NCBI GenBank assembly: GCA_000091205.1 | Contig: AP006492.2 | DNA length: 64,000 bases | Reading direction: 5' to 3' (one strand) | From: Cyanidioschyzon merolae | Taxonomy: Eukaryota | Part shown: positions 2,679 through 41,640 of the stretch, in pieces | Numbering within the stretch: the first letter of the stretch is position 1 | Layout: each line of letters starts with the position of its first letter | Notes under the pieces: generated by a model | The model's input: only the letters and a program-made list of their open reading frames with translations | What the model was told of the DNA's origin: nothing | The model's database searches: none | Translations under genes and position numbers: made by a program

Positions 2679-4901
2679 TCGAGCAAGACTTCTACGTACG
2701 CAGACCAACGTTAATGCCGGGATGGATTGAATCTTTTGCCGAACAGGGCCATCATTGGAAAGCCGCATTCGAGAGGATGGCCTCAACAATATCGGGCACC
2801 TAAAGGGCGCACGTCAGATTACAAAAGTCTTGGAAATTTTGGGAGTGCTCCACTTCCGTCCATCAGTCCGGATCTGCGTCTGCTTCCAGATGCAAAAGAT
2901 ACCACGAACGCACGGACGTTGTTGTCAGCACCCAGTATCCAACACAAATTCGGAAGGTCGGCTCCATCGTCGATTTCGATGTCTTTTTTGCAGCGCTGCT
3001 GGAGAAACTCCTTTGAATTCGCTTGCCAGTACGGCAGCGGATTCGCGATCTGGTGGCATTGAGGAATCAACAAGGGCGCTGGGCACTATCCGCCCGAGAG
3101 CGCGTTTTCCTTGCAAGACGCCTTGCCTCGCCGAACGCACTGTAGCAAGGTGCGCGCGTTAGGCCTCAACGGAAGGAGCATTATGTATCGAGCGCGCCCA
3201 AAATTTGAGAGTCCGCGCCCTTGGGGCACGTCACCTACTCCGGTCTTGTGGAAAGGTCCGCGCATGCGTGGCATTCGCGTTCTACCCTCTTACACTGAGC
3301 ACTATGCGTCGAGGCATTTCAGCGGCATGGATCCGTCACAGTCTAGATGTAAACCCGAAAAGTGCTTCTGTTATCGGTGTACGATCAGGAGGAACTCGAC
3401 TAAAATGTCAGGTATGAGGAGCTGATAGATGCTACCCCGGTTTGCGTTCCTGTCCTTTGAGTGTGGTGGGACGAATGTCGACTGGCAAGGCAGTGATCGG
3501 CGGCGAATCCGTATTTCGGCACAAGGTGCTGCCACAGAAAAGAGGACCCAAAATTTCGCGTTCGTAGAGGGGCATCGTGAACGCAGAGACAGGTGTCATG
3601 GACGCCCACGACAAGTTTACCGCAGTCACATGTGCAGGCGGGCACCCAACCGAAGTTGTTTGCGCAGGTGCAAAAGATGGCGTTTTTCCACCGGGCTCGC
3701 AAAATCGTCAAGCGCTCGTGTCGCGACAGCGAATCAGCGTTCTGCATGATACGTCCAGTATGTAACGAACGCCCTATCTGTCACGTCGTATTTTTGGTCA
3801 CTTGATTGTCCAGCATACTTCTAGAAGCGCGTTGCTGACTTTCCGAGGATATCGCACAGCATAGCTCCTCTCCTGTCCGGCGTATGAGAAGCAGACGGGG
3901 GCTCTTGTACAAGAGTCGGCGCTCCTACTGTTCGCCATGGAGGCCCCGAGTCGAACTTCTGTTCAATATATAGTCTAGATAGAGAGGCTGGCAATACCCA
4001 GCGCCCAGAGCTCTGATTCTTCGTGCCTCATGAGATCGATGGGCGTAGGCAATACCGATTAACGAGCAAAAAGCTGTGGCAGCGAGCGAACGTGATTCCT
4101 TGTAAAGTCTAGTCAATACAATCGTGTCGCGCCGACTAGCAACGACCACATATCGCAATGTCAGTGCTGGTGCAGCGTCGCATCGACAGTCGGACGCACT
4201 GGCATAACGCGCTGAACGTCAGACATGCAAAGGTAGGGCAGGAGACCAGGAAACAGCGCGGTGTCCATTTGATTCAGTTTCGTCCCAACAATCACGAAGC
4301 AACGAATGAGTACCGAAAAGGTTTCGTGCATACAAAGCGAAGAATGCATCCACGCGCAACATTCGCCAGAGCAGATAGAGTGCATTCCCGTATTGAGGCA
4401 ACCATATATAAGACGGATCTTCCTTCAGTGCATACATTTGGAGCCCAAGTCGTGAGCCCTTGTTACGATGCCCTGCGTTTGCACGCGCATCATCGAGGCA
4501 AGTGTGCCGCCAAACGAATACTTCGCAAAGCGACAACGCTGCGTGACGCCTCGCCCGTGCGCACTGCACCTCAGCGGGCGACGCTCCCCGTAATGCACCA
4601 GCGATCATATTGGGAACGTGAGTTTCCTTAATCCTGCTGCGGCACAGTGCGAGGTCGCAGCGACAAGAAACCTCGGCAGCATGCTCCCGAAATCACCAGC
4701 AGGTTCGCAGGTCCTATCTGTTTCACCCGCTAAACGAACATCTCGAGTCCTCTGCCAGAATGAGGACATCCATGCACAATTCTAGTGAGCGTATCCGCGA
4801 GAGGCCGCCAAATAGCCATAGCACGTGCTTAGCGGCGGCGGAGTCCCGGAGGTAACGCACTCGCTATCGCTGTGCGCGCAGCCTCAATCAGGTCTGTCAC
4901 A

Positions 4902-5510: not shown

Positions 5511-7469
5511 TCCATACGTTTCTTGCCGTTGGGAGTTGTACTCACTAATGCAAGGAGTCCATGAACTTTCGCCCTCCTTTCCATTTGCTCCTCCGTCAGC
5601 GGTCCGTACTGTGCTATATCCTCAGGACTCCGTTGGCATTTTTCCATCTCCACTCTCTGAAGTGTGCAACCAAGTTCATGGTGTGTATACGACGCTCGGA
5701 ACTCATCTACAGGTATTGTAACGAAACGCCGTGCGCACTCCCTGCATGTTCTTGTCGTTGGAGCTGGCGTAGTTCCTTTTTGGGTCTTCCAGCGCCCTGC
5801 CCCAAAAGCTACTACGAGCCTTAGACTCTCGTCCTCCTCCAAGGCGCTCAAGTGATTGGAAAAGATCGCGAATGCACGCTGCTTCCCACAGTACAAATTC
5901 ATTCGCAAACGAGCTCACCGAGGCTCGGTATACTCCTCCCACAGCGCATCCCAATGAGCAACGCGAACTTCCATGAATTCCCGAAAAGCTTCAAAGTCCG
6001 CGCCCTGGCTCGTCACCTCGCTCATAGCTTCCAGGTGATCCCTCATTCCTGCATTCCACGTCTCGATATTTTTCCTCGCATTCGTTATACGGGATTCTCG
6101 ATAGTATCTCGCTCTCGAGAACCTCAAAAGAAGCATATATTTCTGACGTATGTTGCCGTCGGTGCAATCTTCCGCACGCTTGGGTACAGCGATGGATATG
6201 ATATTCTTGTTCCAGGGGTTAAGGCCGACGACAAAGTCGTTCTCGTGGGGATTATACATCCAGTGGCCCGCCTTCTTGTTTCCGTGCTTCGGCAAGTGCG
6301 ATAACGTACACGGGATAGGACGAACTGCCTGCAACCGCTGATAGTCTACACATATGTATACCCCATCGTTGTCGATTGTCCCCGTGAATACCTTTTTTTC
6401 GCCGGTCTGGGACGCTTGAAATCGAAGATATTCTGCCAGTAGGAGTCCCGGTCTTCGCCGATGATTTCTTTGTTGCTCACACCGAGCGCTGGACTGATCT
6501 CCTTCATGAAGACGGAGAGGACTCTAGAGTCAATAGTAACAAAATGTGACTTGGACTCGCGTAAGCGAACGACAATGAAGCGCATCTGGAGAAGCGATTG
6601 AATGTCATCTCTCCAACGCTTCATTTTTTCCGTACTCAGCTCCATTTCGGCCTTGCGTTCGAGTTCTCGGTCCAAAAACATGAAGTAGGAGAGAATAAGG
6701 GGATAACATCTCTCTTCGTTTTTTCTCATATCTGACAATTTTTCTCTTGGGTTGACAAGCCCCAAGACCGAACGATGCTTTTGATGAGTCGCGCGAATTA
6801 CAGAAGCCCTATTTTTTCTAGAGCGTGATTTCCCCTTGTCGATGAATTCGATCTGCTGTTCATGCTGGCGATCGTCCTTCACACCGTCGATGACTGCCCA
6901 CATCCCTTCACGAAACAGGCCCGGGTACAGCGCAAAGACGGCGCGTGTCATGAAAAATTTGGGTATACGATCTTATTGTTCCTCACATTCGTGAGGAACC
7001 TCATTGCCCTGTATTCGTAGGTATCTGCGTCACCCCTGTATCGCGCACCGTAGAAGCGGGAGCTTGCGTAATTTTTCGGAGAGCATGGACTGTCTCATTT
7101 CTCCTCGATGTTTCGCAGGTGCCAAACATCAACTGGCTGACAAAGGTCATGTTGAAAACTTCTCCCGGAAACATCACTGTTTCGATGTGCATTGCGTTGC
7201 GGTATATCTCCCTCCGCAAATGCATCAGTCCCGAAAAAAGCGTTACAAACATAGCTTGAGCACGAATCGCCATCGTTTCTGAAGGCCTGTCGCAACGTTT
7301 CCTTGTATGGATCCTTAATATGCCCAAGAAGACAGAATTTCATCACCATTTCATCGATCAGTCGTCTTTCTTGCAACCTTTGACGAAGGGCCTCCCGTTT
7401 TTGCTTCTTCGCGTTAGCCTGTTCCTCTGCACTCGGCACTGTCCTTTGTTCTCTTCCGGCGGCCGGCAA
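5507..7469 (-). pseudogene. Decayed TnpB/Fanzor-like nuclease gene (copy A)
   Basis: Homology to copy B is spread over at least three reading frames. The frameshift positions differ from those in copy B, which argues for decay rather than introns. The C-terminal region carrying the RuvC-III motif and zinc-finger region is missing. Confidence 0.5.
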
Positions 7470-7644
7470 TACCGGTCATCCAGAACCCCATACCTCCAGT
7501 TGCATAAGTTTCGGTTTTTATATAAAACACTAGGGACGCTTCTGCTTTAAACGACGACAAATCAGTTAAATACTTTACCTTGAAGGTTGAAACACGATTG
7601 AAGTAAAACCTACACTTTGCTATCATTTGATCGCAAATACAACT
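5507..7644 (-). mobile_element. Fanzor/TnpB-like (OMEGA-family RuvC nuclease) element, copy A; 3'-truncated and frameshifted
   Basis: The fragmented ORFs 7095..7469, 7001..7327, 6346..6951, 5915..6334 and 5507..5908 are collinear and 55-75% identical in amino acids to the copy-B ORFs at 38399..40674. A RuvC-I-like motif FVVGLNPWNKNIISIAVP matches copy B's [18 protein letters not shown]. The upstream end shares 'ggttgaaacacg..gcaaatacaact' with copy B, with the boundary at about 7644. Homology stops abruptly at 5507, after KKRME, where copy B continues into the RuvC-III motif. The element is roughly 48% GC against roughly 60-65% in flanking genes. Confidence 0.55.
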
Positions 7645-7859
7645 GGCCCCGACACAGCTGTAGGCCAAAAAGTGGCCATTATCGCGTTTCTCTTCGCCGG
7701 CGAGACAGGTTGCGTGTTGTGACGGCCAGATATCGTGGTGCGCGTACGGGCCATATAATACAAAAAAAGAACGGAGTGTGGCCAATTACTTGCAACGAGG
7801 TAACGGTTCCTTTTCACATCTATTGCAGACCTTGAAAAGAGGAACCTTTTGCTCATGGT

Positions 7860-8340
7860 CTAACGATTACCTTCGAGGTGGAAGGTCCCACACACCGGAA
7901 GACGCTACCTGCTTTTGCTCCGCGTGACTCTGAGTGGTGGAGAATGTGACGCACCTGAGCGTCTCGTCCGAATCGCGTTTGGTTCTGGGACTAGGAGCGG
8001 ATGTGCTGCCTATGGGCGTCACCTTGGTCGCGGTGGACTCCTAGGATACCGCTTCGCGGTACCGCAGGCTGAAGGTCTGCATGTACAGCTTGGAGGCTCC
8101 CAGAAATGTAAATAGCCCTGATTCCGTTTCGCGTGAACCAAGCCTCTTCCGACGCCCTCAGTGGTATTGCGAAGCCGTTCTGTCACCGTGGTGCATTAGC
8201 ACCAGCGGTGTAGGTGCTATTCCGGGTGCTCAAGGAAGGTTAGGTGCACCGTTGAACGTGCGAAACAAGCAGTTCATTCGAGAGAAAGTAGGGGTGATGG
8301 AACGTGGAGAAAGAGTGCAGCATGAGGACGCATTCCCGAA
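7860..8340 (+). repeat. Interspersed repeat R1 (SINE-like), copy a
   Basis: The head 'ctaacgattaccttcgaggtggaaggtccc' and core 'ccgacgccctcagtggtattgcgaagccgttctgtc' match the other R1 copies. R1d, for example, reads 'ccgacgccctctgtggtatagaaaagccgtcctacgtc'. It lies about 215 bp beyond the upstream end of Fanzor-like copy A. Confidence 0.6.
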
Positions 8341-9217
8341 AGCCAATATCGATCAGGCAATCTGGGATATATGGTCAGTGGAGACGTTCTGTCGAACCAA
8401 AGAAAGCATAGCGCCGGAGGGAATTCCCTAATGGCTCTGGTGTTCGACGCATCGCCTTGGCAGATGCATATGCGCTGAAATCATCCCGCAGGAGGAAATT
8501 CCCTTATACTTCCGCTGGGCCGGTGCCCGCGGGCGGCAAACGTAGCACTTGCGCGTTTCCACTGCATGATTGACACGCAGTTACCGCCGTGGAGAGGCAC
8601 ACGTTAAGCTCGTTTGGAGCAACTGACCAGCTGCAGTCATATATACGTATCTCATCAACGGAGCGTCTTCAGAGACGTGAGCAAAGACGCGCAGGTCGTT
8701 TTGCGCTAAGCTTTAGAGGCTCGTGCGCGGTCTAAGATAGACGTCGACGCGCCGGTGTTGAGGAGAACGAAAACAGCGCCCTTGTGTGTGTAGTTGTCTG
8801 TCGAAAGACGAACAACTTCACTCCAGTAGAGCGTAAACGGGCGCCCCGGAGTCACGGATTTTGAAACTTGAGAAAACACTGGTGCGAAAGCACTCGTCTT
8901 TTCCACGGACTACACGCGTCACGGCGAGAGCGGGGCTCGTTGCTCATCAGTCGCGGCCGGGACGATTCTGAACCACGGAGACGTGAGTGCTACAGCCCAG
9001 TACACTGGATCAAGCGTTGAATGCACGTGCTCCTGGGGATATTGATAACGGCGCTTCTGATCGCCGCTGCGTTCTGGGTCGCATTGTCGATGGTGCGTCT
9101 GGAACGGCGCCTTGCGGAGCACGAGCAGCAGGCAACACAACGTTTATTGGAACCGCGTAAACCTGGTGAGCGCAGCGTGCGCGCGGAAACGAGCACTGCG
9201 CTCTCGTAGCAATACAT

Positions 9218-15046: not shown

Positions 15047-17329
15047 CTGCAGTCAAAAGCACGTCCAGCTCGGTGCGGTGAAATCTGTCGCTCCGGGACA
15101 AGTGTTGCGCTAGATTGGCCCGCTTGTGAGCGAAACGGCCAGTCGTCAATCGCGCAGATTGTCCACTATGGGTGTCAATGGGCAGTTACGTGGCGCGGTG
15201 CTGTCGAAGCCGAGACGCGATTATCTGGCGGTGCCAAACATAGCTCCTATGTCCGTTAGGATCATATAGTTCCATAAATGCACTTTCCGCGATGCGCTTG
15301 GATCATGGACGTGCCTCCGGGGCGGGGGCGTATCGCGCGTTCGCGCTGGTGCCCCTCGAGCGCTGGTTCCGTTCTGCGGTACGCAGCGAGGCATCTGAAC
15401 GCGAGTCCGATCGATGCGGAACTCGGACACGTTCGCTCTGTTCCCGCGACTTGGTTTGTTCTCCGAAAATTTTCTAGATGCATAGTCCTGAAATTTGATG
15501 CGCAGCGAAAATCTATTATGGACTCATATGCAGTTCTCAGATGCTCGAACGTATTTTCGGATTAGGTTCTGTTGACGTTCTGCGACTGCTGGCAAGCGAT
15601 GCGTGACCGGAATCGAGATGATTCGCGGCGCACTCGAGCAAGGATTCATGAAATAGCTAATATTGCTGTGCAATGCATACGTTTTGGCGTTTACCTCTCT
15701 CCCTTTCTTACGTTTAACATGCGCACTTCGCACATTCATCGACGTTTGGATCTTTCTCTTTCAAGGCCAGTCGCGGGCGCAACGAAGCGCGGCCATGGAT
15801 TGACGCAGACAGCTACTGAAAATCGTCTGTAAACGACTTGCTCTCCAGCTCATCAAGAGAATTTGCAGAATGTGTCATGTCCAATAGCAATCTCCATTCG
15901 AAACACATACCTTCATTTGGTACAGGTTATCTGCAACACCGCATTTGGCAGCTGCATGATGGCTCTCACGAGATACGCTTCAAGAGGTTCGCGTCGCTTT
16001 TCTTTGTATGCAAAGGAGTGCTGCGCTCGAAATTTGGACATCGCAACGATGCTCTTCGGTAAACAGACCGTCACCGATATGTTGGAATGAAGTACCGACA
16101 GACTGAAATTTTATGGTTTGTTCCCTAGGCTGTTTGTTCCTTCCAGCACTTGTTTCATCCTGGAGAACATTGTGTTTTACGAATCCTCTATTGAATGAAA
16201 CAGCAAGCAGTCGCTTGTGCAAGTCGCAGAGACAACGCAGATACCTGCTGCATGCGCGGAAACATTGCAAGGCATTGCATGGCGCCACGTGCACCAGTCA
16301 AAGGCACGTATCGACCGATCATAGGAGCGTTCACGAGCCACCGGGTGCTGGTCAGATGAGCGGAGGGTTTCGCGGAAATGCGGGAACACCCGCACACAGT
16401 CAAGCCACCGCTGCGAAGACGCACCGATGCAGTATACAAAGATAGAGAGAATGACAAACGAAGCATAGATAGGGGCGGGTGACTCTGCATGAAATGCGTT
16501 GACCACAAGCGGAAGCAGCTCAGTGGGGACGTTAACGCTGCCATCAAGATTCCGCCAATGCTGATAGCGGAACTGGTGGGAATGCAGTTACCAACGTATT
16601 CGAATATGGAGACTCGTATGCGAAAAACAAGGTACAGTGGCAGCGGAACCCTGCAAACACCAGTATTGGTGCTAGAGCGCAGAAACAAAACCTATATTGT
16701 GTACGCCCGACTCTGCGAACCTGCTCTATGTTAACCGAACACGGCAGTATCCAGAATCCCTGAATGCGCTGCTGCGGTATGCAAGCCAATGAAACAGAAA
16801 ATGTCCAACGAGTTTCTAGGGTAAATGAATGACTACCCGCTGACGCCTTCCAGCCTTTTTCGACCGGCCGCCTGCTGTCAGCTTCAGTTTATCCAGGTAT
16901 ACACTGAGCTCGAGAGGCCGACCGAAAAACCTGCATCGCGTCAGTTTCAGAGGTCTCGTCTTCAGCACCGCACATCATCTGATACTGATTGCACCTTTCA
17001 AAGTCTCGGTTCATGAGCTCCTTGCGTTTTTACTGCCGCCGGCAGAATTCACCAGCGCAAGGACTCGTCGAACTCGTGCCCTCGGTGCCATTTCCCGCCC
17101 TGCCAGCTCTCTGTGCTTTTCTGTCGCCAAAACGGTCCGCTGGCTTCTCTCCATCTCGAACTTCAAAAGTGTACACCCTGGTTCATTCCTTATTCATGAA
17201 AATGAATGCACCCCTTTAAGCACTCGGGTGAGGAATTTCGCAGCAGGAGAGGCACTCGCGGAAGACAGACAAAATGTGCCCTGGCGTCACCGTGTCTTGA
17301 ACGCCTCGGCGATTCGTACAATGGACCGA

Positions 17330-18150
17330 TCAACGCGTTTCACCATAGAAACCACTCCTCTTTATAGCGTTGAATCTCGGAGAGGACGGAAGAGTGAAAA
17401 GCAGCTGCACCCCGATAGAATCCGGAAAAGCCCAAACGCAAAGTGAATGCTGAAATACTACGTTGTACAGTAGAAGAACGTCGCCAGAGGTCCGGGGAAA
17501 AGTCTTTAACGAGTCGACAGCATTGCTGCTGTTCTACGAGACTTCTTTACAAGCGAAACTGAGGCCACCAAATGGATCCACTGCTGCTAGAATAGAAGAT
17601 GATAACCTGTATCTCTTCGAGTTCGGTCATAGACACAACGGGCTCCCTCTCTGCAAATACCCATGGACGTTCCGACCGTATCCTCTGAAGCAAGTCTCAT
17701 ACACTGAAAAAAATAATCGACGTTTCTCTGCATCATAGCGATCGCGACGTTTCAGGAACGCTGTCGCTGCGATTTCTGTGGAAGACAGTCGTGCGTGAAC
17801 GCGGACTTTGTTGTGACTGTATCCCAGTGTTTTGAGTACCACGTGAACAAGCTGTTGAGAAACAGAGACACTTGCTGTGTCTACGATCGTTGGTTTTACT
17901 TTCCATATGCTGATCAACGGTTCGTTTTCTATCATTGACGATGAGCAGTCTTTCATAATATTTTTTGCGCAAAGCGCATCTACATGTGCCTTTCAGTAAT
18001 CCTCAACCATCTAAGCACTATGATATGACTCACCTGAACAAGAAATACAGTCCTCCTTGCACAGTTTCGCACAGAATACATCCTAGAGAGATTTCGTCTA
18101 TGATCTGTACGGTACATTGCATTGTGGAGTCGATCGCCTGCTATCCACCA
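17330..18150 (+). repeat. Dispersed repeat family R2, copy 2
   Basis: It is homologous to 1-745 (see copy 1) and carries an internal insertion of about 70 bp relative to copy 1. It sits in the low-GC block 15.4-18.2 kb. Confidence 0.5.
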
Positions 18151-18364: not shown

Positions 18365-19096
18365 ATGAAGTTGCACACGTTTCGGTGGATGAGTACTCAG
18401 GGTCCAGAGGTAACGTTTGGGCAGGAGTGTTCGCGGAACCCGGAGCGCTCGGTTGCGTTTACGACGGGAGCGAGCTCGAGCGTGCGGTTCCTGGTCGCGC
18501 GCCCTTCACCACCAGCGCCTGCGCTGGCGCAGCGGGCCCGCAACCGCAGCGCTACTCGCTCAACGTCTGGAGCACGCTTTGCGTTGCCCCGCAGAGTCGC
18601 CTGTCACGGTGTGCAAGAACGAAGACGACTGCTCACGTGCCTGGCTGGACAGCCGGATAGAGCGCGGCACGAGTCCGAGGACAACTCGAACGCAGGCGGT
18701 GCGCCTGCCGATAAAACCGGCAACACCGGCGGAAGCATACCACAGCGCAATCCACAACATCAAGTACCAAAAAGCTTGATCGACTGGAACGAAGAATGGA
18801 AGGCGTTCGTGAGTGAGGGAAAAATCGACTGGAGCCAGCTGCCCCGGGAACGGCCGGCGCCAACCGTCTGGACACGCAGCTCTGCCCGAGTGCGCCAACT
18901 ATGGTCGCAGTTTAGAGCGAGAACACCTACCTGGCGAGAGGTTTCTCGTGATTGGCGCTTCTGGGTTGCGCTGCTGATCACGCTGTCAGTGCTGAGTTCG
19001 GTATGGACGTATTCTGACGTCTCGCATCATGAGTCGATCCCGCCAGGCGTGAGGGCCGCACTCGAAAACCTCACAGTACTCTACGCACTGGTCTGA
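18365..19096 (+). CDS. Hypothetical protein with a C-terminal transmembrane segment (FWVALLITLSVLSSVW)
   Basis: The ORF has host-like GC and begins about 215 bp downstream of R2 copy 2. No recognisable domain is present, so this is a weak call. Confidence 0.25.
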   Translation: MKLHTFRWMSTQGPEVTFGQECSRNPERSVAFTTGASSSVRFLVARPSPPAPALAQRARNRSATRSTSGARFALPRRVACHGVQERRRLLTCLAGQPDRARHESEDNSNAGGAPADKTGNTGGSIPQRNPQHQVPKSLIDWNEEWKAFVSEGKIDWSQLPRERPAPTVWTRSSARVRQLWSQFRARTPTWREVSRDWRFWVALLITLSVLSSVWTYSDVSHHESIPPGVRAALENLTVLYALV

Positions 19097-19249
19097 GGCG
19101 TAACGTCTCGGACACGTTCGGCACCAGACAGGTGTATCTGTACGGTATCTTCGAATGGTTCGATCGTGCTGCAGGATGCTGAAAAAAACGATTGGTTTTG
19201 TGCTGTGGAGCCAATTGACGAAATTCATTACAGCGATTCCAGGACATCA

Positions 19250-20580
19250 TAGCTTTGTAGGGCGCAGAATTCTGGAAGCTGCGATCGCGACCCAGATCGG
19301 ATGGAGAACCATAACCGGATACGAACGACCTCTTTTCCTAAACAGTACATCTCGTGGCCGTATCCGGCTGACGCAGGGGGTGGCTTTGATTTTGCGAGCG
19401 CTCATACAAGTAGTGCATGCGCAGCACTGGTTGTCGACAGATACCAACAGCGATGCGTCGCACTGTTGTGCAGCGTGCTGCCCCGGTATCCGCGTCATTG
19501 CAGATACCGCTGAACCCGGGAGTGGAGTGACCGGTACGTTATGGTGAGGATCGCGCTTACCCGGAACACAAAGAATCCTGCAATTCATGACAAGGGGCGG
19601 CGTCTGTGCGTACATATCCATGTCCAAAGCGAGAGCACTTGCCTCCAAGCCATAATTTTGTGTCCAGAAATCGCATCCGTGGTCTACAGCAGACGCGGAT
19701 AAGCGCAAGCGTCGAGACGCTGGCTTGACTCTATACCGGAACTACAACCTCGCATACACATGCAAGTACTGGTGGGAGGCGCTGGAATTCCCGGGACTTG
19801 CTCGAGGTACCCAGTGGCTCGCGAAAATCCGCGTTGATGGCTTCTGGCTACCAGCACGGGCTCTAAGCCGTATAGGGACACTGGAATCGCACTGGGAATC
19901 ACACTGTCCCTGCTATCGAGACGAAATCCCCGAGACGCTGACATATTTAGGCTTACAGTGCCCGCGCTGGAAGCAGGAGCGCAGCGAGCTCCTTGCAGGA
20001 CAGCAGCAGCTGGACATCACCGTGATAGGCGAAGGCCGGACAATCACTTTGAGTGCAGCACTGGCAACTGATGGTCCGCTAACCGAGCCTCAACGCTCAT
20101 TCGTGGCCAATAAACTCACATGCTACCTTCTAGGCAGCAGGTCCAGCGAAGCGGATGCGTACACGGGCACAGTGCGCTTTCTGCGCCTACCTTCTGTGGT
20201 GGGTGTCAAGCACAAATCCGCATTTCCAACCGACAACAACGCATTCCATGCATGATCACCAAGGAGGGAGGCGACTCCCTCGATTTATCCTAACAGCCAA
20301 GTTTCTCCAGCGTGTTGTGCAGCGAAGGCAAGCCTGCATCCGCAGACTGTCCGAGCACACACTGACGACGAGACCCGATTCTACGTCGGGTGAACCACGC
20401 CTTGAGCCGACGCCCTCTGGGGTATAGAAAAGCCGTTCTGTCTCTATGATGCATCTGTACCAAAGGTAAAGACGCCATTGCGGACTATCTTGGCAGGCAT
20501 TAGGTGTGCGATAGAACGTTTGAGACGACCAGTATATCCGAGAAAAAGTATAGGTAATGTAACTTGGACGCATTGGGTAG
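19250..20580 (+). mobile_element. 5'-truncated non-LTR (LINE-like) retrotransposon 3' fragment, terminating in the R1 tail module
   Basis: ORF 19725..20255 contains HWESHCPCYRDEIPETLTYLGLQCPRWKQER, which resembles the C-terminal zf-RVT (C-x2-C ... ET..H....CP) motif of non-LTR ORF2 proteins. An upstream ORF contains a degenerate YPADAGGG that is possibly derived from the YADD box. The 3' 350 bp carry the R1 core 'ccttgagccgacgccctctggggtatagaaaagccgttctgtc' and the R1 tail 'gaccagtatatccgagaaaaagtataggtaatgtaac'. Confidence 0.35.
20230..20580 (+). repeat. R1 repeat, copy b (LINE-3' variant with an alternative head)
   Basis: Its core and tail are shared with R1d/e/f. The head 'cctaacagccaagtttctccagcgtg' is shared only with copy c ('ttctaactgccaagtgtctccaaggc'). 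Confidence 0.55.
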
Positions 20581-20782
20581 TATGATGAACGATTTCTCGA
20601 TGACCGTTAACCATTCCGCATTCTTCGATCCCTGATCCTTGTGAATGGTTTGTCATCGGAGAACAAAAACCATCCTCGTCAAGTGCACGGCGATTGATTG
20701 TATACAGCATTGCTGGGTGCTTTTCTGCAGCCGTTTGCGGGCAGTAGTTATGTGCTTCGTTTTCACATCGTGATTCTTTATC

Positions 20783-24000: not shown

Positions 24001-24570
24001 GGACTAGCAGCGTCTGTTTGCGGTGATGATGACAAGCGCTTCCAGACTGCTCCCCATGCAGTGATTCCCCAAAAGTCTCTTCGAAGAAAACTTGACGGAC
24101 ACGCTTCTCCTCGACGGCTAGCAGCGTCTCTTTGCGGCGATGATGACAAGCGCTTCCAGACTGCTCTCTATGCGGAGATTCTCCAAAAGTCTCTTCGAAG
24201 AAAACTTGACGGACACGCTTCTCCTCGACGGCTAGCAGCGTCTCTTTGCGGTGATGATGACATGCGCTTCCAGACTGCTCCCCATGCAGTGATTCCCCAA
24301 AAGTGTCTTCGAAGAAAACTTGACGGACACGCTTCTCCTCGACGGCTAGCAGCGTCTCTTTGCGGCGATGATGACAAGCGCTTCCAGACTGCTCTCCATG
24401 CAGTGATTCCCCAAAAGTCTCTTCGAAGAAAACTTGACGGACACGCTTCTCCTCGACGGCTAGCAGCGTCTGTTTGCGGTGATGATGACAAGCGCTTCCA
24501 GACTGCTCTCCATGCAGTGATTCCCCAAAAGTCTCTTCGAAGAAGGCTTGAAAAACACGCATATACGCCC
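24001..24570. repeat. Minisatellite of 5 near-identical copies of a 114-bp (38-codon) unit
   Basis: Units start at about 24001, 24118, 24232, 24346 and 24460 ('gg(a/c)tagcagcgtct(g/c)tttgcgg(t/c)gatgatgaca(a/t)gcgcttccagactgct...'). The repeat is in frame on both strands. The plus strand reads LAASLCGDDDKRFQTALHAVIPQKSLRRKLDGHASPRR, and the minus strand is also open. It lies about 260 bp upstream of the ATS1 start codon. Confidence 0.8.
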
Positions 24571-29328: not shown

Positions 29329-29789
29329 AGACCAGAACCTCCTGGTAACGAACGCCCCCTGATTCTTGTTCTAGTCGAACGCAAAACTTGTCATCAATGC
29401 GTTCAGGCGTGCGCCAGGACGCGCGCTGCTGCAGTGCATCGTGGCAGGCATCGGCGGCAGCTGCCCTGCGGGACGTTGGATGCGCTGTGCAGCGGCGCAA
29501 CGACGTGCGAGGCGGCGGCGGCGGCGGCGACGGCGCAAGTCGTCCCCGCCAGGAACGGGGTCACAGCATAGGTGTATAGCTGTCGGTGTCCATTGAGCAG
29601 TGGGATTAGAAGATAAACGTATTTACCCATGACAAGTGATAACGATGCGAATCCTTGTACTGTTCGGATATGCAGACACTAGCTGGAGGCACTTTCCGAC
29701 AGACGTTCTCTGTTAGCGTTGCGAAAATCGGAAGCTCGTCCCGAATCGATCCGTCGTAAGGCAGCAGAAGCAGCAGCAGCACTGAGCAG

Positions 29790-30700
29790 GTGTCCAAGAT
29801 CGCACGTGTCCAGCTCTGGATTCTCGCGTGGGCCTCGAAGGTAACGTCAACTCCGGCGAACAGGTTCCGTTTCCATCTGAAAAAGTCCCTTTTCGATGCT
29901 GTGGGTATATTGATGCACGCTTACGCGCTGCTCGTGTCCGTCCGAGGTATCCGGCGATACCGGAAGCGTGCCGTTCGCGACCACTGGGCCCAGCCTCGAC
30001 GTCTTTTGGAGCCTCATGATGCGTGCTCCATGACAGTACGGCTGGATCGGTTCACGTATCGTGTCGTGTACGAAGGACCTCCGGTCCGATTTTTCCCGGT
30101 CGTTGCGCACTCATGCCGCTGGGTTGTCCCCAAGCGTACAGAGCCTCGTGAATCGCGCCGGGCGTGCGTCCATCGAGCGATAGCCCCGCACCAAGTTGTT
30201 AGAGGCGGCGCTAACCGCACACGCACCAGCACATCGACTAGCTGCTCGTCGGGAGGCATTTCATCGAGCAGGACGAGCACGCAGGTTCACGGATTCAGCA
30301 GCACATCGACTAGCTGCTAGTCGGGAGGCATTTCATCGAGCAGGACGAGCACGCAGGTTCACGGATTCAGCAGCACATCGACTAGCTGCTAGTCGGGAGG
30401 CATTTCATCGAGCAGGACGAGCATGCAGGTTCACGGATTCGTTCACCTCGTCACTCGCGTAAGCCGAGCAAAGGTCCGCGTATCGAAACGTCAACACACG
30501 CGATACATGGTGGTGAAGGAGAAACGCGCTCCCCAGAATTCTTTCTAACTGCCAAGTGTCTCCAAGGCAACGTGGCGCGAGTGCAGGTCAGTGTACGCAG
30601 GCTGTCGGAGCATAAATCGATAACGATGAATACCGGTCCCGCATGGAATGAATCAAGTCGCATGCTGATGCCCTTCGCGGCATAGCAAAGCCGTTCTGCC
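29790..30700 (+). mobile_element. Second 5'-truncated LINE-like 3' fragment. It comprises a degenerate ORF, a 72-bp x3 tandem array and the R1 tail module (copy c).
   Basis: ORF 29790..30320 (KIARVQLWILAWASKV...DHWAQPRRLLEPHDACSM) aligns weakly with the 19725..20255 ORF (AKIRVDGFWLPARALS...SHWESHCPCYRDE). The 3' part, about 30490-30700, carries the R1 core '...gcatagcaaagccgttctgcctccgtggtgca' in the same order as copy b. Confidence 0.3.
30228..30440. repeat. Tandem repeat of about 2.9 copies of a 72-bp (24-codon) unit
   Basis: The unit is 'agcacatcgactagctgctcgtcgggaggcatttcatcgagcaggacgagcacgcaggttcacggattcagc'. It encodes AAHRLAASREAFHRAGRARRFTDS in frame. Confidence 0.8.
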
Positions 30701-31092
30701 TCCGTGGTGCACCTGCGCCAGCGCCACAGGCGCTATGGAGGGTGCTTATGAAAGACTCGACCCACCGTGGAACGTTCGACACGACCGTTTTCTCCAGACG
30801 GGTGCTTGGTAAATGCAACTTGGGGGTAGCGTCAAGCACGAGCAACGCTTTATCCAATCTCTATATTCTTTCGTGCCTTCGCAGGCATCTCCAGTCTGTG
30901 TAAAAAACCCCTCTGTCCATCGAGAGAAATCATCGACGCCAGCGCATGATGCCGCTGCGCGCGCGCTGCACCGCACCGCACGGGACCATCGCCAGTCCAT
31001 GCATTTCGTCTGAGATAGCCAGCGGCGATTCCCGTTCCGGAACGTGTAACGTGATTTGTTCAGTGTGAGACAAATACAGCTTCGTACGCAGC

Positions 31093-32133: not shown

Positions 32134-35100
32134 GTCCAGCACGCTGTGCACAGTGCTCGAGAGCCTGCACACAACCAACGACATTCGTCGCTGGTTTGAT
32201 GGACTCCGAGCATTTCAAAGCAGCAAGAGTGTCGTGCGGCAGCTCTAAGGGTCATCATGGCGTCGATTGCGCGCATGAAGGGTACGGAAGTTCGATTGTC
32301 GAGGCCGGAACGCTAGCCTGGTGGCGGATGACACGGATCACGACGCAGCGCATCGTCGGCTTGAGACCGCCCGGAACGGCAGTTCCTCAGTCTGGGTACA
32401 CCTGCATCATCAACACGCTTCGTTGACGCTGGAGAAGAGACTGATGGCGATTGTTGGTAACGTTGTGCGGTGGATGTGGCGCTCGCCCTACAGTTTAAAG
32501 TTTTCGGGATTGCATTTTTTGTGCTTAAGGTTGTTTTTAGAAATCGCATCACTTTAGGACTCGAATACGCAACAGTGGGCCGGTACGCTAGATTTTGCGA
32601 GCTAGAACTTTGGACACGAGCGCGTCGTAGGGACCCCGTATGGTCGTAAAGGTATGGCGTGCACCCCGTACGGAAACGGAAACGAGACACCGCGCGGTGT
32701 GTTGTTATCACGATTGTCAGGTTCTATCATACGTTGTACATAAAGGTCAAATCATGGGACGTCATGGTCGTTCGCCATGTACCGAAAGGAACTGGTCTTA
32801 GCGTACATGACCTGCGCTGCAGCCTCGCTGGATTGCTGAACCGCATCACGCCGGGGCATCGCTCCAGACAAGAATCCAATGTAATGAGGCGTACCCACTG
32901 GTTTCATGATCCCAAGTGAGCAGCGTTTCAGCACAATGCCCTCACTGAATACGAAATGAATCCCTCAAGGGCTCGCCTGAAAGCAAGAAGCTGGACGCTC
33001 GGGAAGCTCGAACGATTTTCCGGAATTTTGATCGAGCATACGGCGTCTCGATATAGAAGGTGCTTCCGCGCATCGCTGCTGCTAGAATGATACCCAAGTT
33101 AGCCGCGCATCCGCGATTGCCTCGGCATCTGCTCTTCGATCAGCGTACCGTGCGCCATCTCGTGCGTCCGCCTCTGTTCCACGTTCGTCTGTTCTATCTG
33201 TTCCAGCGTGCACCTACGCTAGTGATTTGTTGATTTCGTCCGGATCGCATCGATGAGAATCGAGAACGATGGCGTCCTGGAAGCGTTGTACACTTACGTC
33301 AGTGGAGCATGCGTACAGCGTTTGAGCGCTGCAGCATGCCGAGCGCAATGGATACCCACAACTCAATGCGACATAGCGGCCATTTCCTCATCCAACTCTT
33401 TGAACAAGTTGCCGAATGCAAGTTTTTCGTCAAAGTACAAGTGAAACAATTGGCGGCCCAACACGTTTTCATATATTCCTGCGAAAAATCGTCGACGTGC
33501 GCCGTTTCAACGCCCATTTACGCGCTTGATCAAGCGTACGAAACATCCACCTCTGCTCTATACGGTGCTGAGGACGTCGATATCAAAATCCTGGCGTCGT
33601 CACGCGCCATGCTGATATGCTTCCTGGCATTCAGTGTGCCCGTCCCTCGATAAATTCGGAACCGCGCATACGTTGAGCAGGTTCATCTGCTTTCCAATCA
33701 AGTTTCTGGCGTTGTGCTCTTGGTTTCGAGGCACGACGATCTCCTTGGTGACCGTCGCTCCAGGAAACACGCTCATCACAAAGTGCTTCTCTTCATTGAC
33801 ATAATTCCGTTGAAATTGTGTCCCGTTGCTCCACGCAGGCCTGAGCTTCACTGCGTGCATATAGATCGGTGTTCCGTCGCTCTCCATCGTACTCATATAT
33901 TACGCTTCACGTACTCCTCGTAAACATGAAACATTGAACGAGCTCCGCCGGTGCACTCTGCCATGGTGTTTGAATGCTTCATACTTGCTCGCAGAAACGA
34001 TCTCCTTATCCGCTTCCACCATTGCGTGGGCGGATGGCATGCATGTGATCTTCATTCTCTAAATCCACTTTTTCCATGGTTTCAGACATAATCGGGGACG
34101 ATGGCGCTCGAGCTCGCCTCTTCGATATATGGGTCGAGTATTCCGCAGGTACTTTGCGTCACCTTCTCTGGAGCGGGCACGCCTATGGGCCGCAGCGCGA
34201 CTTTCCGCCCCGCCCTGCGTACGAGCAGGAGTTCCTTAGCTCGCTTCAGGGCTAGCACAGCGAAAGAATGGTTCGTAAACGAACATTGCCACGGATGCGA
34301 ACGACTCGTCTATTGATCTGTGAGCATCAAATTGGTGTTGGATAACAGAAAAGACGCCTTCGACTGGACTGAATCAGAAACAATAGACTGCACCGGAGTG
34401 CAGCGCAAAGTCGAACTATGCTGTGAAATATTGCACGGTTTTTGGGCGATAAAAAGTGACCTCGACATAGCGCATGACAGACGAGCATCGGACGGCGACG
34501 GCACGAAGCATGCATCGACAAAACGTCATATGATGAACGATCTTTTCTGTTGGACGCTTCATAGGCAAGCGCGCGACTGAGTCGGCTACGAGGCCCATGA
34601 TTTCGAAATGCTTGCTCGTCGCTTCTTCATGATGAGCAGATTTTCCCGCTTTGAGTACCCCGAGAAAGGTCTACGATTTCTCCCGAATGAAGTTTCATTG
34701 AGCAAGACGAACACCTGCCGCTCCTGTAATACGCGTTCACGTTTCAGTGCGAAATCAATCGGTTGTTGTTCGATGCACGACGCTCTCGAGCAGAAGCAAG
34801 CCTTATCGCGTTGTCCATCGGTTTCTTTTCTTCACCTTTCATAGCACCGGTAGAGACGCATCATATCGCGTGGCTCGTTTCGACTTCATTTCATCATAGA
34901 TTGTATGAAAAAGAAAGGATTGGCGAAGAGACATTCGCGCGGCAAGCGTTTGATAATTTCTGATTCAGTTGCACAACGTTCAGGGTATTGACTACCAGAA
35001 CGGTGGTTCATCCATCTGGTTCATGTGAAATAACTGACTTAAGCAATAAATCCCGTTTTTCGCGAGAGACCAGTGACACCATCGATTCCTTCCTCAACCA

Positions 35101-35444
35101 TTCCCCAATCTACAGGATACGTTTCTTCTGTTGAATTCCTGTAAGAAAAACAAACAAAAGCGGAAAAGCGTGCACTGATAAGAGCATTATGCAAGTCACT
35201 ACGCTTCCCCTAACGCTAGGCTCCGAACACGACCGCGACGGTGTATTCGCCTCGGTGGTCTTCGCTCTGACCCCAATCCATGGAAGCGAGCCGAATGCAT
35301 GTACATCGAGACGCAGCGCGTTCACGTGGTCAGCATATCCAGAGAAGCAAACCTGATGTGCGTAGACAGCTGAGGAGGCGTCGCTGCATCGGCTGCTGGG
35401 GCGCAGATTTTGCCCATTGTTGCAGCGCGGACAAGTGTTCCGAA

Positions 35445-36028
35445 TTCTCGAAAATTTACCTTCTAGGTGGAAGGTCTCGCGAGCCGGACGAGCCTGCCGG
35501 GCATACGCCCTGTGCGCCTCTGCAGCGACCGATGCTGTAGGGAGATCTCCGCTGCCCCTCGGCAACGTAATCAATCTGGGGCTCGCAGCGAGTATGCTGC
35601 GTTTCCGCGTCGCGCAGGTCGCAGAGGACTCCGAGCATATCGCTTCGCGCTATCGCAGGCAATACGTCTGTATGCGCATCTTGCAGGCTCCCTGAATGAC
35701 AATGAATCCCGAATCCATATCGTGCAGAACACGCCTCGAGCCGACGCCCTCTGTGGTATAGAAAAGCCGTCCTACGTCCGTGATGCATCCGTACCAAAGG
35801 TAAAGACGCCACTGCGGACTATCAGGGCAGGCATTAGGTGTCCGATAGAACGTAGGAAACGACCAGAATATCCGAGAAAAAGTATAGGTAATGTAACATG
35901 GAAGTAGGGCGTTTGAAGGATACTTCACCTCGCACTAAAAAAACACAAAAAAAAAGTAAGAAAAGAAAAATGCGCGTGATCGGAGAACGCTGGCACAAGT
36001 ACACCTTTTGTCCATGAAAAAAAAATCG
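35445..36028 (+). repeat. R1 repeat, copy d (most complete copy, with an A-rich tail)
   Basis: Head 'ttctcgaaaatttaccttctaggtggaaggtctcgcgagccggacgag'. Core 'cctcgagccgacgccctctgtggtatagaaaagccgtcctacgtccgtgatgcatccgtaccaaagg'. Tail 'gaccagaatatccgagaaaaagtataggtaatgtaac...aaaaaaacacaaaaaaaaagtaagaaaagaaaaatgcgc...gtccatgaaaaaaaaatcgg'. It ends 408 bp upstream of the bZIP ATG. Confidence 0.6.
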
Positions 36029-38151: not shown

Positions 38152-40825
38152 TCCATTGAGGTCCCTACGCTTTACTTAGAGCTTTTCGTTCGCTTTTAAG
38201 CCGAGACGGCAGGTTGCGCAACGTCATCGAGTTGTAGACGCGCACGAATAGCGAGTGCTTATTTCTCGACACGATGAAACTGGATTCGGAAAATAGATTC
38301 ATGAACTAAAGAGTGAACTGATTCCCGATGGAGGCCGAACGCCGTTCGAAAGTCGAACGACGGCAGTGCACCGTAGTGGCGAGAAGGCCGCCCTAGACTT
38401 AACGACTCCAACTGGCGTACTGACGCTTCCTAGGCTTTCTGGACCGGCCACCCACTACTGATTCCAACTTCTTCTCATATAAATCAACTTTGAGAGGTTG
38501 TCCAATAAAGTTCTCTCGTGTCCGCTCTGGAGGTCTTTTCTCCAGCACCGCGCATCTCCTGATATTGATAGCGGCGTTGAAGTCTCGGTTAACGAACTCC
38601 ATACGCTTCTTGCCATCATTGGTTGTACATACTAATGCAATGAGTCCACGAACTTTTGCCTTCCGTTCCATTTGCTCTCCCGTCAGCGGTCCGTACTTTG
38701 CAATTTCCTCAGGACTCCTCTGGCACTTTTCCATCTCCAGGCTCTGGAGTGTGCACCCCAGTTCATGATGTGTATAAAATGTTCGAAACTCATGGATCGG
38801 TATTGTGACAAAACGCCGTGCACACTCCTTGTACGTTCTTGTCGTCGGAGCTGGCAGAGTTCCTTTTTGGGTGTTCCATCGCCCTGCTCCGTACGCTACT
38901 ACAAGCCTCTGTCTTTCATCCTTCTTCGAGGCGCTCAACTCATTGAAAAAATTCGCGAACGCCCGCTACCTCCCACCATATAGATTCGTACGCAGACGAG
39001 CCCACCGGGGCTCTGTATACTCCTCCCACAGCGCCTCCCAATGGGCAACAAGAACTTCCATGAAATTCCGAAAAGCTGTAAAGTCCGCTCCTCGGCTCGT
39101 CACCTCGCTCATAGCTTCAAGGTGATCCTTCATTCCTGCGTTCCACGTAACGATTTTCTTCCTTGCATTCATTATACCGGATTCTCGGTAGTATCTTGCT
39201 CTGGAGAACCTCCAAAGGCGCATGTCTTTCTGACGTAATTTGCCGTCAGTACCATATTCCGCACGCTTCGGTGCTGTGATGGTTATGATATTCGTGTTCC
39301 CAGGGTCTGCGCCGACGACAAAGTCGTTATCTTGGACTCTCTCCGTCGCAGGACCCGCCTCCTTCTTTTCTTCATGTTTCGCCGCGCCAACGACAAGGTC
39401 GTTATCCCGCACCTCCTGCATTGCAGGACCCGCCTTCTTCTCATCTTCATCCTTCGTGACGGGCGCAGCCAAAGGCGGACCAGCACGATCTTTCTACAAC
39501 CGCCGATAGTGTACACACAAGGCTACTCCATCGGTTTCGATCAACCCAGTGAACCACTTTTGCTCGCTCATTTTGAGACGTTTGAAATTGAAGATATTCT
39601 TCCAGTACGTTTCCCGGTTTTCATCGGAGAACTCCTCCCTGTTACCATTGAACTCCGGACTGATCCCCTTCATGATGCCGTAAAGGACTCTGGAGTCGGT
39701 ACTCACGAAATGTGACTTGATGTTGCACATTGGAACGACGTTGAAGCGCTTCCCCATTGGGACAGCCTTCCGTCTCTCCCACTCTTCATTTTTTTTCCCC
39801 ACTCAGCTTCATCTCTGCTTTGCGCTCGAGTTCTCGGTCCATGAACACGAAATACCGTACGACGAGGCGATCGTATCTTTCCTTATCTTTTTTCATGTCT
39901 GATATCTTGTCTGTTGGATTCGCCAACCCAGTACCGCACGATGCTCTTGAATAGCCGCACGGATTACAGAAGCTTCATTCGTGCTCTCGTTTGACGCCTT
40001 CTCGTCGACAAATTCGACCTCATCTTCACGCTTGCGATCTTTCACGATGTCGTTGATAATCGCCCATTTCCCATGGCGAGAGATGCCCTGGTACAGCGCA
40101 AACACGGCGCGTATCATGAAACGTTCGGGGTTCACTGTCAAATGGTTCTTCAGATTCGTGAAGTACTTCATTGCCCCGTCTGTGTAAATATCCCCGTCAC
40201 CCTTGTATCGAGTACCCTCGAGGCTGTAAAAGGGATGTTTTTCGTGGAGAGCATGCACTAGCTCATTTTGCCTCCTCGTTTCCCCTGTACCAAGCATCAG
40301 GTAACGAATAAAGTCTTATCGAAAAACTCGTCCGGAATCTCGACCGTTTCCGTGTGCGTCACGTCTCCGTACATCTCCCTCGCCAAATGAATCAATCCTG
40401 ACGACACCTCGACAACACGCTTGGAGTACGAGTCGACACGTTTTGCTGATACCCTCTCGCAACTTTTCCCTCTAGGGATCCTTGATATGTCCAAGACGAA
40501 AAGGTTTTCACCATAATATCGTCGTGCTGTCGTCTTTCCTGCAGCTTCTGACGTTGGACCTCTCCGTTTTGCCTCTTCGTCTTGTATTGTGGCTCCGGGC
40601 TTGGTACTTTTGTTCGTTTTTTTTCTGGCAGCCGGCGACACCTGTCTTCCAGGATCCTTCATTTCCATGTCCATAGCTTTCCTTTGTTATTTTTTTGAAG
40701 AAGAGCGCACATGAAACGCGTTTGCTGTACACCGCGGGAAAGCACTTGAGTACACGCATTTGAGGGTTGAAACACGGTTGCACTGACAGACTATACGCTG
40801 CTAGGGCTTTAATGCAAATACAACT
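38152..40825 (-). mobile_element. Fanzor/TnpB-like (OMEGA-family RuvC nuclease) element, copy B; the more complete copy
   Basis: The ORF series 40297..40674, 39893..40297, 39494..39802, 38966..39472 and 38399..38938 reconstructs a roughly 700-aa protein. A RuvC-I-like motif reads [18 protein letters not shown]. The C-terminus has a TnpB-like Cys-containing helper region (EFRTFYTHHELGC...EKCQ) and a RuvC-III-like motif FVNRDFNAAINIRRC. Its upstream boundary at about 40825 is defined by homology to copy A ending after 'gcaaatacaact'. The low-GC 3' flank 38152-38398 presumably holds the right end of the element. Confidence 0.6.
38399..40674 (-). pseudogene. TnpB/Fanzor-like RuvC nuclease gene (copy B), interrupted by at least three frameshifts and an internal 20-codon tandem duplication
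   Basis: See the mobile-element entry. The frameshift sites differ from those of copy A. A duplicated peptide [20 protein letters not shown] / [21 protein letters not shown] lies immediately before RuvC-I. Confidence 0.55.
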
Positions 40826-41033
40826 CGTACGTTATAGCAATACGCTCATATTAAGGATCGCGTTTCCCAGTTACGGCAAGATGCGCTTTGCGTCTCATGC
40901 ATGCCAGATATGGAGATGCGCGTCTTGACTGCGCTCTAAAATAAAGAGCGGATAGGAACCTCTAAATACCAACTATATAACAATTTCTGGCCCCGCCTGC
41001 GATAAACGTTGAAAAAGGGAAAAGCTTACGGTA

Positions 41034-41640
41034 TTCTCGAAAGTATACCTTTTAGGTGCAAGGTCCCGCGAGCCGGACGATTCTGCCAGGGTTGTGCCTC
41101 ATGGTCGCCGCAGTGCTTCGTGCTGTAGTAAGATCTGAGCAGTTCGTCCGAAACGCAGTTGATTCTGGTACTCGTAGCGGGTATGCTGCACGTGGGCGTC
41201 GCTCTGGTCGCAGTGGACTCCTCGAATATCGTTTCGCGCTGCCACCGGCACTACGTCCGTCTCTACTGTTTCCACGCTCCCGGAATAATAATGTACTCCA
41301 GACCACGTGTCGGATGCATCATAATTCGATCCGACGCCCTCAGAAGCATGGAAAACCCGCCCTGACTTCGTGCTGCATCTGCCGCAGCGGTCTGACCGCA
41401 GACGCGGGTGCCCCAGACAGGCAAGACCCCCGATAGAACGTAAAAGAACGATCAGTATTTTCGAAAGCAAGTCTGAATGATAGACCTTGGTACACCAGCA
41501 TGACGAACGCTTTGTTTCGATTACCAGTACGCATCCCGCAATCTGGGATCCTTCGTCAATGGAACCGGTTTATCAAGAGTAGAGAAGATCACAAGCAGCG
41601 TGGCCGCCGCCTGCCTGACACAGCGGCTACACGGCCTACA
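41034..41640 (+). repeat. R1 repeat, copy e
   Basis: Head 'ttctcgaaagtataccttttaggtgcaaggtcccgcgagccggacgattctgccaggg'. Core 'ccgacgccctcagaagcatggaaaacccgccctgac'. Its extended 3' part, 'gcatcccgcaatctgggatcc', is shared with copy g ('gcatcccgcagtctaggatcc'). It lies about 210 bp beyond the upstream end of Fanzor-like copy B, separated by a spacer homologous to that of copy A. Confidence 0.55.

Follow-up and report, generated by a model that had tools for sequence, protein, structure and literature searches.

LINE/SINE pairs of the "stringent" kind, in which a long interspersed element (LINE) and a short interspersed element (SINE) share a 3′ tail, have reportedly been described by Ohshima, Okada and co-workers, among them UnaL2/UnaSINE1 in the eel and CR1 with an RNA polymerase III (Pol III) SINE in the tortoise. 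L1 is said, in work by Morrish et al. from 2002 and 2007, to be capable of endonuclease-independent insertion at DNA breaks and telomeres. The ingi/RIME and L1Tc/NARTc pairs of trypanosomes represent LINE deletion derivatives. HAL1 is likewise a LINE deletion derivative (cited in Bao and Jurka, 2013; PMC3627910). We analyzed a 64,000-nucleotide stretch of the Cyanidioschyzon merolae genome ("the window"; contig AP006492.2 of assembly GCA_000091205.1) that carries a truncated LINE copy at 19717-20672 and several copies of a short non-coding repeat, here called R1. The core and tail of R1 are the 3′ end of a LINE that encodes reverse transcriptase (RT), as a preliminary description of this DNA had proposed, and the comparisons below support a tail-sharing partnership of R1 and LINE.

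R1 resembles the short members of the eel and tortoise pairs in being a short, non-coding repeat that carries the 3′ region and terminal nucleotides of a LINE and that shows 5′ truncation. SINEs of the UnaSINE1 type have Pol III heads derived from tRNA or 5S RNA and share tens of nucleotides with their partner, whereas R1 has no such head and shares ~540 nt; unlike stringent SINE tails, this shared part extends into the last stretch of coding sequence. RIME and NARTc have retained the two ends of their LINEs, while in the head of R1 no similarity to the LINE 5′ end was found.

In C. merolae, 26 copies of non-LTR (lacking long terminal repeats) "class I" elements, annotated "retroelement," have been reported (Nozaki et al., 2007; PMC1955436). 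A further repeat, CMe-1A, has its consensus printed in the supplement of Bao and Jurka (2013; Mobile DNA 4:12; PMC3627910), and a 635-bp stretch of it is 95% identical to TE-N2_CMe, which has ~70 copies. Neither TE-N2_CMe nor CMe-1A was found to have terminal inverted repeats or target-site duplications, and both were left as class unknown (Bao and Jurka, 2013; PMC3627910).

R1 and the 3′ End of the LINE

Relatives of the open reading frame (ORF) at 19725-20255 of the window were taken from metagenome contigs as 66 loci (designated by L-numbers), and 675 kb of sequence was examined. A LINE consensus of 4256 bp (working version 4506 nt) was built from the copies in L010, L016, L017, L023, L026, L040, and L063, and an R1 consensus of 646 bp from 9 of 12 aligned copies (untrimmed version 819 nt, whose positions minus 82 give the 646-bp numbering). 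Colinearity with the LINE begins at R1 position ~105 and runs to the end of R1; over ~540 nt it takes in the last ~55 codons and the 3′ untranslated region (UTR) of the LINE, and the two end alike in GTTTTGTCATCG(A)n. Three blocks lie at equal spacing in the two consensi (R1 positions here in the untrimmed 819-nt numbering): R1 185-209 and LINE 3817-3841 (96%), within the last 55 codons of ORF2; R1 425-636 and LINE 4054-4268 (79%); and R1 680-727 and LINE 4337-4383 (75%). The first of these, a 25-nt box, is the most conserved block between the consensi. In a global alignment 421 of 610 positions are identical (69%), rising to 84-90% in two 50-nt stretches. As judged from these alignments, R1 from ~105 to its end and the LINE's last ~55 codons plus 3′ UTR are evidently of common descent.

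By self-comparison alone, the repeat was placed at about 7788-8393 in the first R1 copy and at about 30626-30851 in the fragment at 30467-30851. Self-comparison and consensus matching identified the following LINE and R1 pieces in the window, with the LINE copy at 19717-20672 given in its parts:

7766-8405, + strand: R1 copy, nearly full length (R1 23-633, 77%), its 5′ end adjoining the left end of an opposite-strand Fanzor1 core
19717-20255, + strand: 3′ remnant of LINE ORF2, last ~179 codons (blastn against LINE copies and consensus, phmmer, tblastn)
20130-20154, + strand: copy of the 25-nt box, CTAGGCGGAAGGTCCCGCGAGCCGG, within the terminal part of ORF2 (sequence read directly)
20256-20672, + strand: LINE 3′ UTR (~415 bp) with R1-shared core and R1-type terminal 106 nt ending GGTTTGTCATCGGAGAACAAA (match to R1 consensus)
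30467-30851, + strand: old, strongly 5′-truncated 3′ fragment of the LINE lineage, ~385 bp (56-61% to LINE copies, 44-52% to R1)
35429-36026, + strand: R1 copy, 5′-truncated at consensus position 75, with LINE-type A-rich tail (consensus matches, tail typing)
40943-41590, + strand: full-length R1 (R1 1-634, 76.5%), its 5′ end 9 bp from the left end of a Fanzor1 core and antisense to it
45400-45697, + strand: LINE-type 3′ fragment, 300 bp, 5′-truncated, with the A-rich tail variant (LINE consensus 3964-4251, 81%)
51094-51733, + strand: solo full-length R1 (R1 8-631, 75%), no adjoining Fanzor core, unique flanks
51928-52032, + strand: LINE-type tail fragment, ~100 bp (LINE consensus 4159-4256, 79%)

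Most LINE copies have an additional A-rich block in the tail. In its place, the LINE copy of the window has the R1-type last 106 nt, which align over their full length to the R1 tail (score 68, vs. 28 for the LINE-type tail), and this copy is thus a direct link between R1 and LINE. The R1-type core and tail ascribed to it in the preliminary description were confirmed in this way and by a 77% match of R1 consensus 354-646 to window 20374-20667; window 20582-20672 also matches R1 tails in the fetched loci (70%). The reverse case is the copy at 35429-36026, where an R1 body is followed by the LINE-type A-rich tail variant, making it an intermediate form. An identity matrix and a neighbor-joining tree place R1 and LINE in separate clades, with R1 more diverged: R1 copies are star-like, 60-76% identical pairwise and 76-85% identical to their own consensus, while LINE copies are 80-87% identical pairwise and 87-95% identical to theirs. 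One hairpin in the shared core shows some compensatory changes, which may simply follow subfamily structure.

The Truncated LINE Copy at 19717-20672

Window 19717-20672 (+ strand) is a dead, 5′-truncated non-LTR retrotransposon copy, 956 of ~4256 bp, and belongs to the single non-LTR retrotransposon family of C. merolae. A LINE-derived locus had been placed at 19250-20580; the locus is indeed LINE-derived, but the actual element runs from 19717 to ~20672. Position 19717 is the exact blastn start against both LINE copies and consensus (90% identity to the consensus) and corresponds to LINE consensus position 3283 of 4256. Every one of ~60 related copies aligns from 19717 onward only, and the preceding DNA, 18900-19716, is single-copy, with counterparts in orthologous contigs alone (98-99% identity). 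The copy, itself without the RT part, was presumably left by abortive target-primed reverse transcription. No empty site was found among the orthologous loci L030, L036, L037, and L045, all of which carry the insertion; L030 is the same genomic region as the window (98% identity). In L037/L036, from a 94%-identical strain, collinearity is lost at window 20443, inside the LINE 3′ UTR, which marks a rearrangement breakpoint in the element.

The ORF at 19725-20255 (176 aa) and its peptide HWESHCPCYRDEIPETLTYLGLQCPRWK are present as described. A word-indexed search returned 46 close relatives in hot-spring metagenomes (75-90% identity). In an exhaustive phmmer search over 1.8 billion representatives, with library-wide E-values, residues 4-91 resembled the region C-terminal to RT in proteins of 1000-1700 aa (E from 4e-12 to 1e-8) that bear Exo_endo_phos and RVT_1 domains, and the same region was recovered by tblastn. 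The ORF thus resembles the C-termini of non-LTR ORF2 proteins, as had been predicted. Its zf-RVT-like block fared less simply. No Pfam family, zf-RVT included, matches the ORF at E ≤ 1, but comparison with relatives identifies the block as a CCHC knuckle: the LINE consensus has a post-RT knuckle reading CPCCGDETPETLTYLGLQCP and P0038 retains the H (GDEIPETLTHLLLQCPRW), so that the block of the window copy is the same knuckle with H mutated to Y.

The Parent LINE Family

Seven LINE copies with one common 5′ end (CAAACTAGTC...) define the 4256-bp element. RT-coding sequence lies upstream of the shared C-terminus in many loci (tblastn with RT-bearing proteins), and the consensus matches RVT_1 (E = 1.3e-20) as well as the RTs of R2 and L1 ORF2p among PDB sequences (E ~1e-17). 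RT-encoding elements with this 3′ end therefore exist in the metagenome contigs, so that neither of the two findings named in the preliminary description as refuting it was made. Along the longest copies, coverage starts with 6 copies at the 5′ end, climbs to ~60 close to the 3′ end, and then drops, and internal truncation points lie at consensus 2921, 2984, 3120, 3181, 3283, and 3391.

Still present at the N-terminus of all seven full-length copies are the pre-endonuclease region and the "ASWNI" motif, the first motif of APE (GFASWNICGI), which align to the relative P0237 at E = 0.02. Where the ~285-aa APE body would follow, these copies have ~160 aa of low-complexity sequence rich in K, S, and T (~656-1400 in the working consensus of 4506 nt). 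No APE was found by Pfam in the N-terminal 524 aa of the consensus and none by blastp; four APE domains used as tblastn queries against the 675 kb gave nothing at E < 0.5. An endonuclease of the non-LTR class, which may be of the APE or the REL type, was not found in the LINE copies by these searches for APE. The full-length, RT-bearing copies looked for were thus found, seven in number, but none has an intact ORF2 or endonuclease, and the "autonomous" LINE of the preliminary description was not recovered.

The window fragment belongs to the same family as the annotated class I elements yet is not an annotated gene, and the makeup of the element (4.26 kb, endonuclease deleted, 3′ UTR of ~400 bp) is reconstructed here from metagenome relatives (compare PMC1955436). 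When the full ORF2 consensus served as the word-search query, the search was swamped by the low-complexity K-rich segment, and the RT part was used instead. The full-length LINEs of L023 (6949-11206) and L026 (1876-6133), from different metagenomes, have a common 3′ flank and unrelated 5′ flanks, a pattern that stems either from recombination of LINE copies or from chimeric assembly across the repeat.

Identity and Structure of R1

R1 is evidently the published TE-N2_CMe on its other strand, an equivalence that goes by way of CMe-1A. The non-coding 646-bp R1 consensus, from AAAGAACAGAAACTAAC to GTTTTGTCATCGG(A)n, is identical at 599 of 628 positions (95.4%) to the reverse complement of CMe-1A nt 1-630, the part of CMe-1A to which TE-N2_CMe was likened (Bao and Jurka, 2013; PMC3627910). 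R1 and TE-N2_CMe are alike in sequence, in length (646 vs. 635 bp), and in their attachment to a ~2.55-kb Fanzor core. The published description orients TE-N2_CMe oppositely and mentions no LINE relation, whereas colinearity of R1 with the LINE 3′ end was found here. A text search of one library of papers found TE-N2_CMe named in none besides that one.

At least eight R1 copies start at consensus positions 1-9, and truncated copies start at ~60, 75, and beyond 250. R1 fits the description of a SINE in being short, non-coding, and dispersed, with a defined 5′ end. The name proposed for it in the preliminary description is not apt in the strict sense, however, because a Pol III-type head is missing: two full-length copies scanned against Rfam gave no tRNA, 5S, 7SL, or other match at E ≤ 5. 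Between the first ~105 nt and the LINE stretch colinear with them there is no significant likeness (the score was reached by 135 of 2000 shuffles), and nothing significant was found against the whole LINE on both strands.

The Second Locus

At 29790-30700, a second truncated LINE with a degenerate ORF had been proposed. Of this span, the part from 30467 is LINE-derived, belonging to the fragment at 30467-30851 listed above, which is nearer the LINE clade than R1 in the shared region; the upstream part, 29700-30466, is unique save for its own tandem repeat, a 72-bp unit present three times (30224-30440). The copy number of this repeat, which lies just upstream of the LINE-derived part, differs in the orthologous L030. 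The ORF at 29790-30320 is unrelated to the LINE: it has no Pfam match and no similarity to RT-bearing or family proteins, and matches to family proteins begin only at ~30386-30389, downstream of its end. The head said to be shared by the two loci and to differ from the solo R1 copies is real (20209-20457 vs. 30467-30715, 65.6%, E = 3.7e-6). It is missing from R1 copies and is the LINE 3′ UTR upstream of the R1-like core.

Junctions With Fanzor1 Elements

The ~3-kb repeats at 5511-8405 and 38338-41590 of the window are CMe-1A, each consisting of an R1 copy and a Fanzor1 core. The cores, identified with the published CMe-1 protein as tblastn query, are as follows:

5511-7644, − strand: degenerate Fanzor1 (CMe-1A) core, without ~260 bp at the right end (element boundaries; tblastn 45-76%, 5621-7505)
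38338-40933, − strand: full-length degenerate Fanzor1 core with right-end hairpin CGTTCGACTTTCGAACG and no A-tail (tblastn 64% over 646 aa, 38708-40627)

The core is ~2.55 kb long and has sharp ends in more than 15 copies, the right end being a hairpin with no A-tail. In the 675 kb no intact Fanzor ORF was found; stops or frameshifts break all copies. Two remnants also occur in the window, at 33192-33938 (− strand; weak match to CMe-1 residues 361-621, 23%, E = 1.7e-7) and at 16950-17186 (237 bp, 67% identical to 38530-38766), and a tandem unit of 73-75 bp lies within the second core, at 39309-39456.

In the second repeat, the R1 5′ end lies 9 bp from the core and antisense to it (40943-41590 with 38338-40933), which is the published CMe-1A arrangement. 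Across the surveyed loci (the window cores and L001, L002, L009, L010, L017, L020, L022, L038, L044, L051, L052, L056, L059, L063, and L066), the left end of the core meets LINE or R1 termini in five configurations, four of them within ~2 bp of the first nucleotide of the core:

Sense LINE tail, within ~2 bp: L066, L059, L052, L038, L022
Antisense full-length R1 head, within ~2 bp (published CMe-1A arrangement): both window copies, L056, L010
Antisense full-length LINE head, within ~2 bp: L017, L063
Antisense truncated LINE, within ~2 bp: L001, L009 group
Sense LINE tail ~57 bp inside the core: L002, L044, L051

The 66 loci were chosen for LINE content, which biases the frequencies of these classes. 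LINE or R1 5′ ends also lie just past the right end of the core in two loci (L010 and the L009 group).

That five junction classes occur at a single boundary is difficult to explain by chance. It is conceivable, though doubtful, that the endonuclease-less LINE and R1 are mechanistically coupled to the Fanzor1 element, an RNA-guided nuclease. Breaks at the ends of the Fanzor element could possibly prime endonuclease-independent reverse transcription; possibly, too, the LINE RT could copy Fanzor-element RNA and switch template. The missing endonuclease, the lack of target duplications, and the junctions together allow such coupling but do not demonstrate it. The family shares with what is reported of endonuclease-independent L1 insertion a LINE without endonuclease body, target-site duplications that are mostly missing, and insertions that pile up, here at the left end of the Fanzor core. 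It differs in that breaks at the Fanzor boundary are hypothetical and that its copies possibly stem from a once-competent ancestor.

Two further ideas were examined and set aside. Spread of the Fanzor cores themselves by retroposition was looked for as directional truncation, but fragments with only a right end are mostly contig-end artefacts and internal fragments have no polarity. A separate clade of core-attached R1, apart from solo R1, was not found; the tree is star-like and uninformative in this respect.

Origin of R1

R1 is probably a tail-sharing, non-autonomous LINE derivative, without the Pol III head of a SINE, that was mobilised by the RT of the LINE family. Such an RT, to go by the homology, would have copied and inserted R1 transcripts in trans. 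It would presumably have recognised the shared 3′ region, as in the stringent LINE/SINE pairs. Divergence from the consensus suggests an older R1 burst (~20%) and a younger LINE burst (~5-13%); since the R1 burst predates the extant LINE copies, its real partner would have been an earlier subfamily bearing the R1-type tail. Of the features that mark retroposition, 5′ truncation and a shared A-rich 3′ end are present; target-site duplications looked convincing at two copies only, with 13 bp in L007 (ATCGATACGTGTA) and 10/11 bp at a short copy in L066.

Several observations weigh against this account. Target-site duplications, which the preliminary description had suggested looking for around solo R1 copies, are not above chance in 16 copies, with a mean best match of 5.9 nt vs. 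5.5 nt for mismatched flank pairs. Across the shared region R1 has only ~66% identity to the extant LINE, which would make its actual partner a subfamily now extinct. Each of the seven full-length LINE copies is frameshifted, and with no intact ORF2 and no endonuclease body a competent source of enzyme is not demonstrated; the annotation of strain 10D contains only RT ORFs of 348 aa ("retroelement, alive"), with 89-91% identity to the consensus in its RT part. For the shared core, a consensus RNA structure is not supported (−2.6 kcal/mol). Finally, of the window's three full-length R1 copies, two are seated on Fanzor1 cores, so R1 has in some cases spread within CMe-1A and not alone.

R1 copies might instead be ordinary 5′-truncated copies of an older, extinct LINE subfamily, their common 5′ end being only the point where similarity fades upstream. 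The colinearity with the LINE from ~105 to the end, the occurrence of truncated R1 copies, and the old, star-like R1 phylogeny speak for such a history, and the first 105 nt are weakly colinear as well (CACTAGCAACTAGAT vs. CACTGGCAACT-GAT, p ~0.07). We nevertheless consider it rather unlikely. Among the at least eight copies that begin at positions 1-9 are solo ones whose upstream flanks are unrelated (window 51094, L047 9021, L010 507), R1-type sequence never runs on into RT-coding DNA in the 675 kb, and the 635-bp unit with its ~70 copies was defined independently by Bao and Jurka (PMC3627910). A different possibility starts from CMe-1A, of which R1 would be a terminal module after capture of a LINE 3′ fragment; solo R1 copies would then be broken or deleted CMe-1A rather than retroposons. 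The published CMe-1A consensus does open with R1 in reverse complement, and a core adjoins two of the window's three full-length R1 copies. Intermediates of R1 with 430 bp of core exist (L046-L049 group), and the homology of the R1-core junction across all type-B copies points to its having arisen once and then been co-amplified. Yet the outer end of R1 is a LINE-type A-rich 3′ terminus, and solo copies keep this end and lose the core-facing side, which is the truncation polarity of a retroposon; they start at AAAGAACAG, without the 9-bp spacer of the composites. Attached and solo R1 interleave in the tree. At the same boundary, cores also join a LINE tail in sense orientation or, in antisense, either the 5′ end of a full-length LINE or a truncated LINE, so that R1 is not an obligatory terminus of the core. 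These points make an origin of R1 within CMe-1A improbable.

It could also be asked whether the conserved blocks of R1 and LINE are functional elements under host selection, either regulatory DNA or structured RNA, rather than relics of mobility. The 25-nt box is 96% conserved between the consensi, and the eight LINE and R1 pieces of the window are all on the + strand. Against such a role, no Rfam family matches, no consensus structure is supported, and the copies, at varied intergenic positions, are 60-76% identical pairwise with indels and truncations; we regard it as very improbable.

Other Features of the Window

The window was placed on chromosome 10 (839,707 bp) of the red alga C. merolae 10D by six of its long ORFs, which match proteins of this strain exactly (BAM80172-BAM80184). 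The genome is intron-poor, with a G+C content of ~57%. Genes for bZIP, PHD, and SAS-6 proteins were identified by Pfam; in view of these genes and of the exact protein matches, a trypanosomatid origin of the repeats (ingi/RIME, SIDER) was rejected. In the window Rfam gave no match and ARAGORN no tRNA. The common strand of the eight LINE and R1 pieces has a two-sided binomial p of ~0.008, and the genes neighboring them occur on both strands. Repeats unrelated to these elements include about five tandem copies of a 114-bp unit (24004-24560), inside mechanical ORFs that the ORF finder called on both strands, and a direct repeat pair at 203-717 and 17614-18122 (~515 bp, 70% identity). A tandem unit of ~88 bp lies at 55793-55982.

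Implications for C. merolae Repeats

Among eukaryotes, the genome of C. merolae ranks with the simplest and the poorest in repeats, and its repeats were catalogued early. With regard to tail sharing alone the result is modest, since R1 is a familiar kind of LINE derivative in a dead state. TE-N2_CMe (~70 copies) and the 5′ fifth of CMe-1A, "class unknown" since 2013, are nevertheless now assigned to a known class. CMe-1A is the most abundant repeat of C. merolae, with ~150-250 copies that make up roughly 5% of the genome; as its 5′ module is an inverted LINE 3′ derivative, this most abundant repeat is chimeric, part retroposon and part TnpB-like element. This raises the question of how an endonuclease-deficient LINE and an RNA-guided-nuclease element were joined so precisely. 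If template switching took place, retroposition would account for at least part of the spread of CMe-1A.

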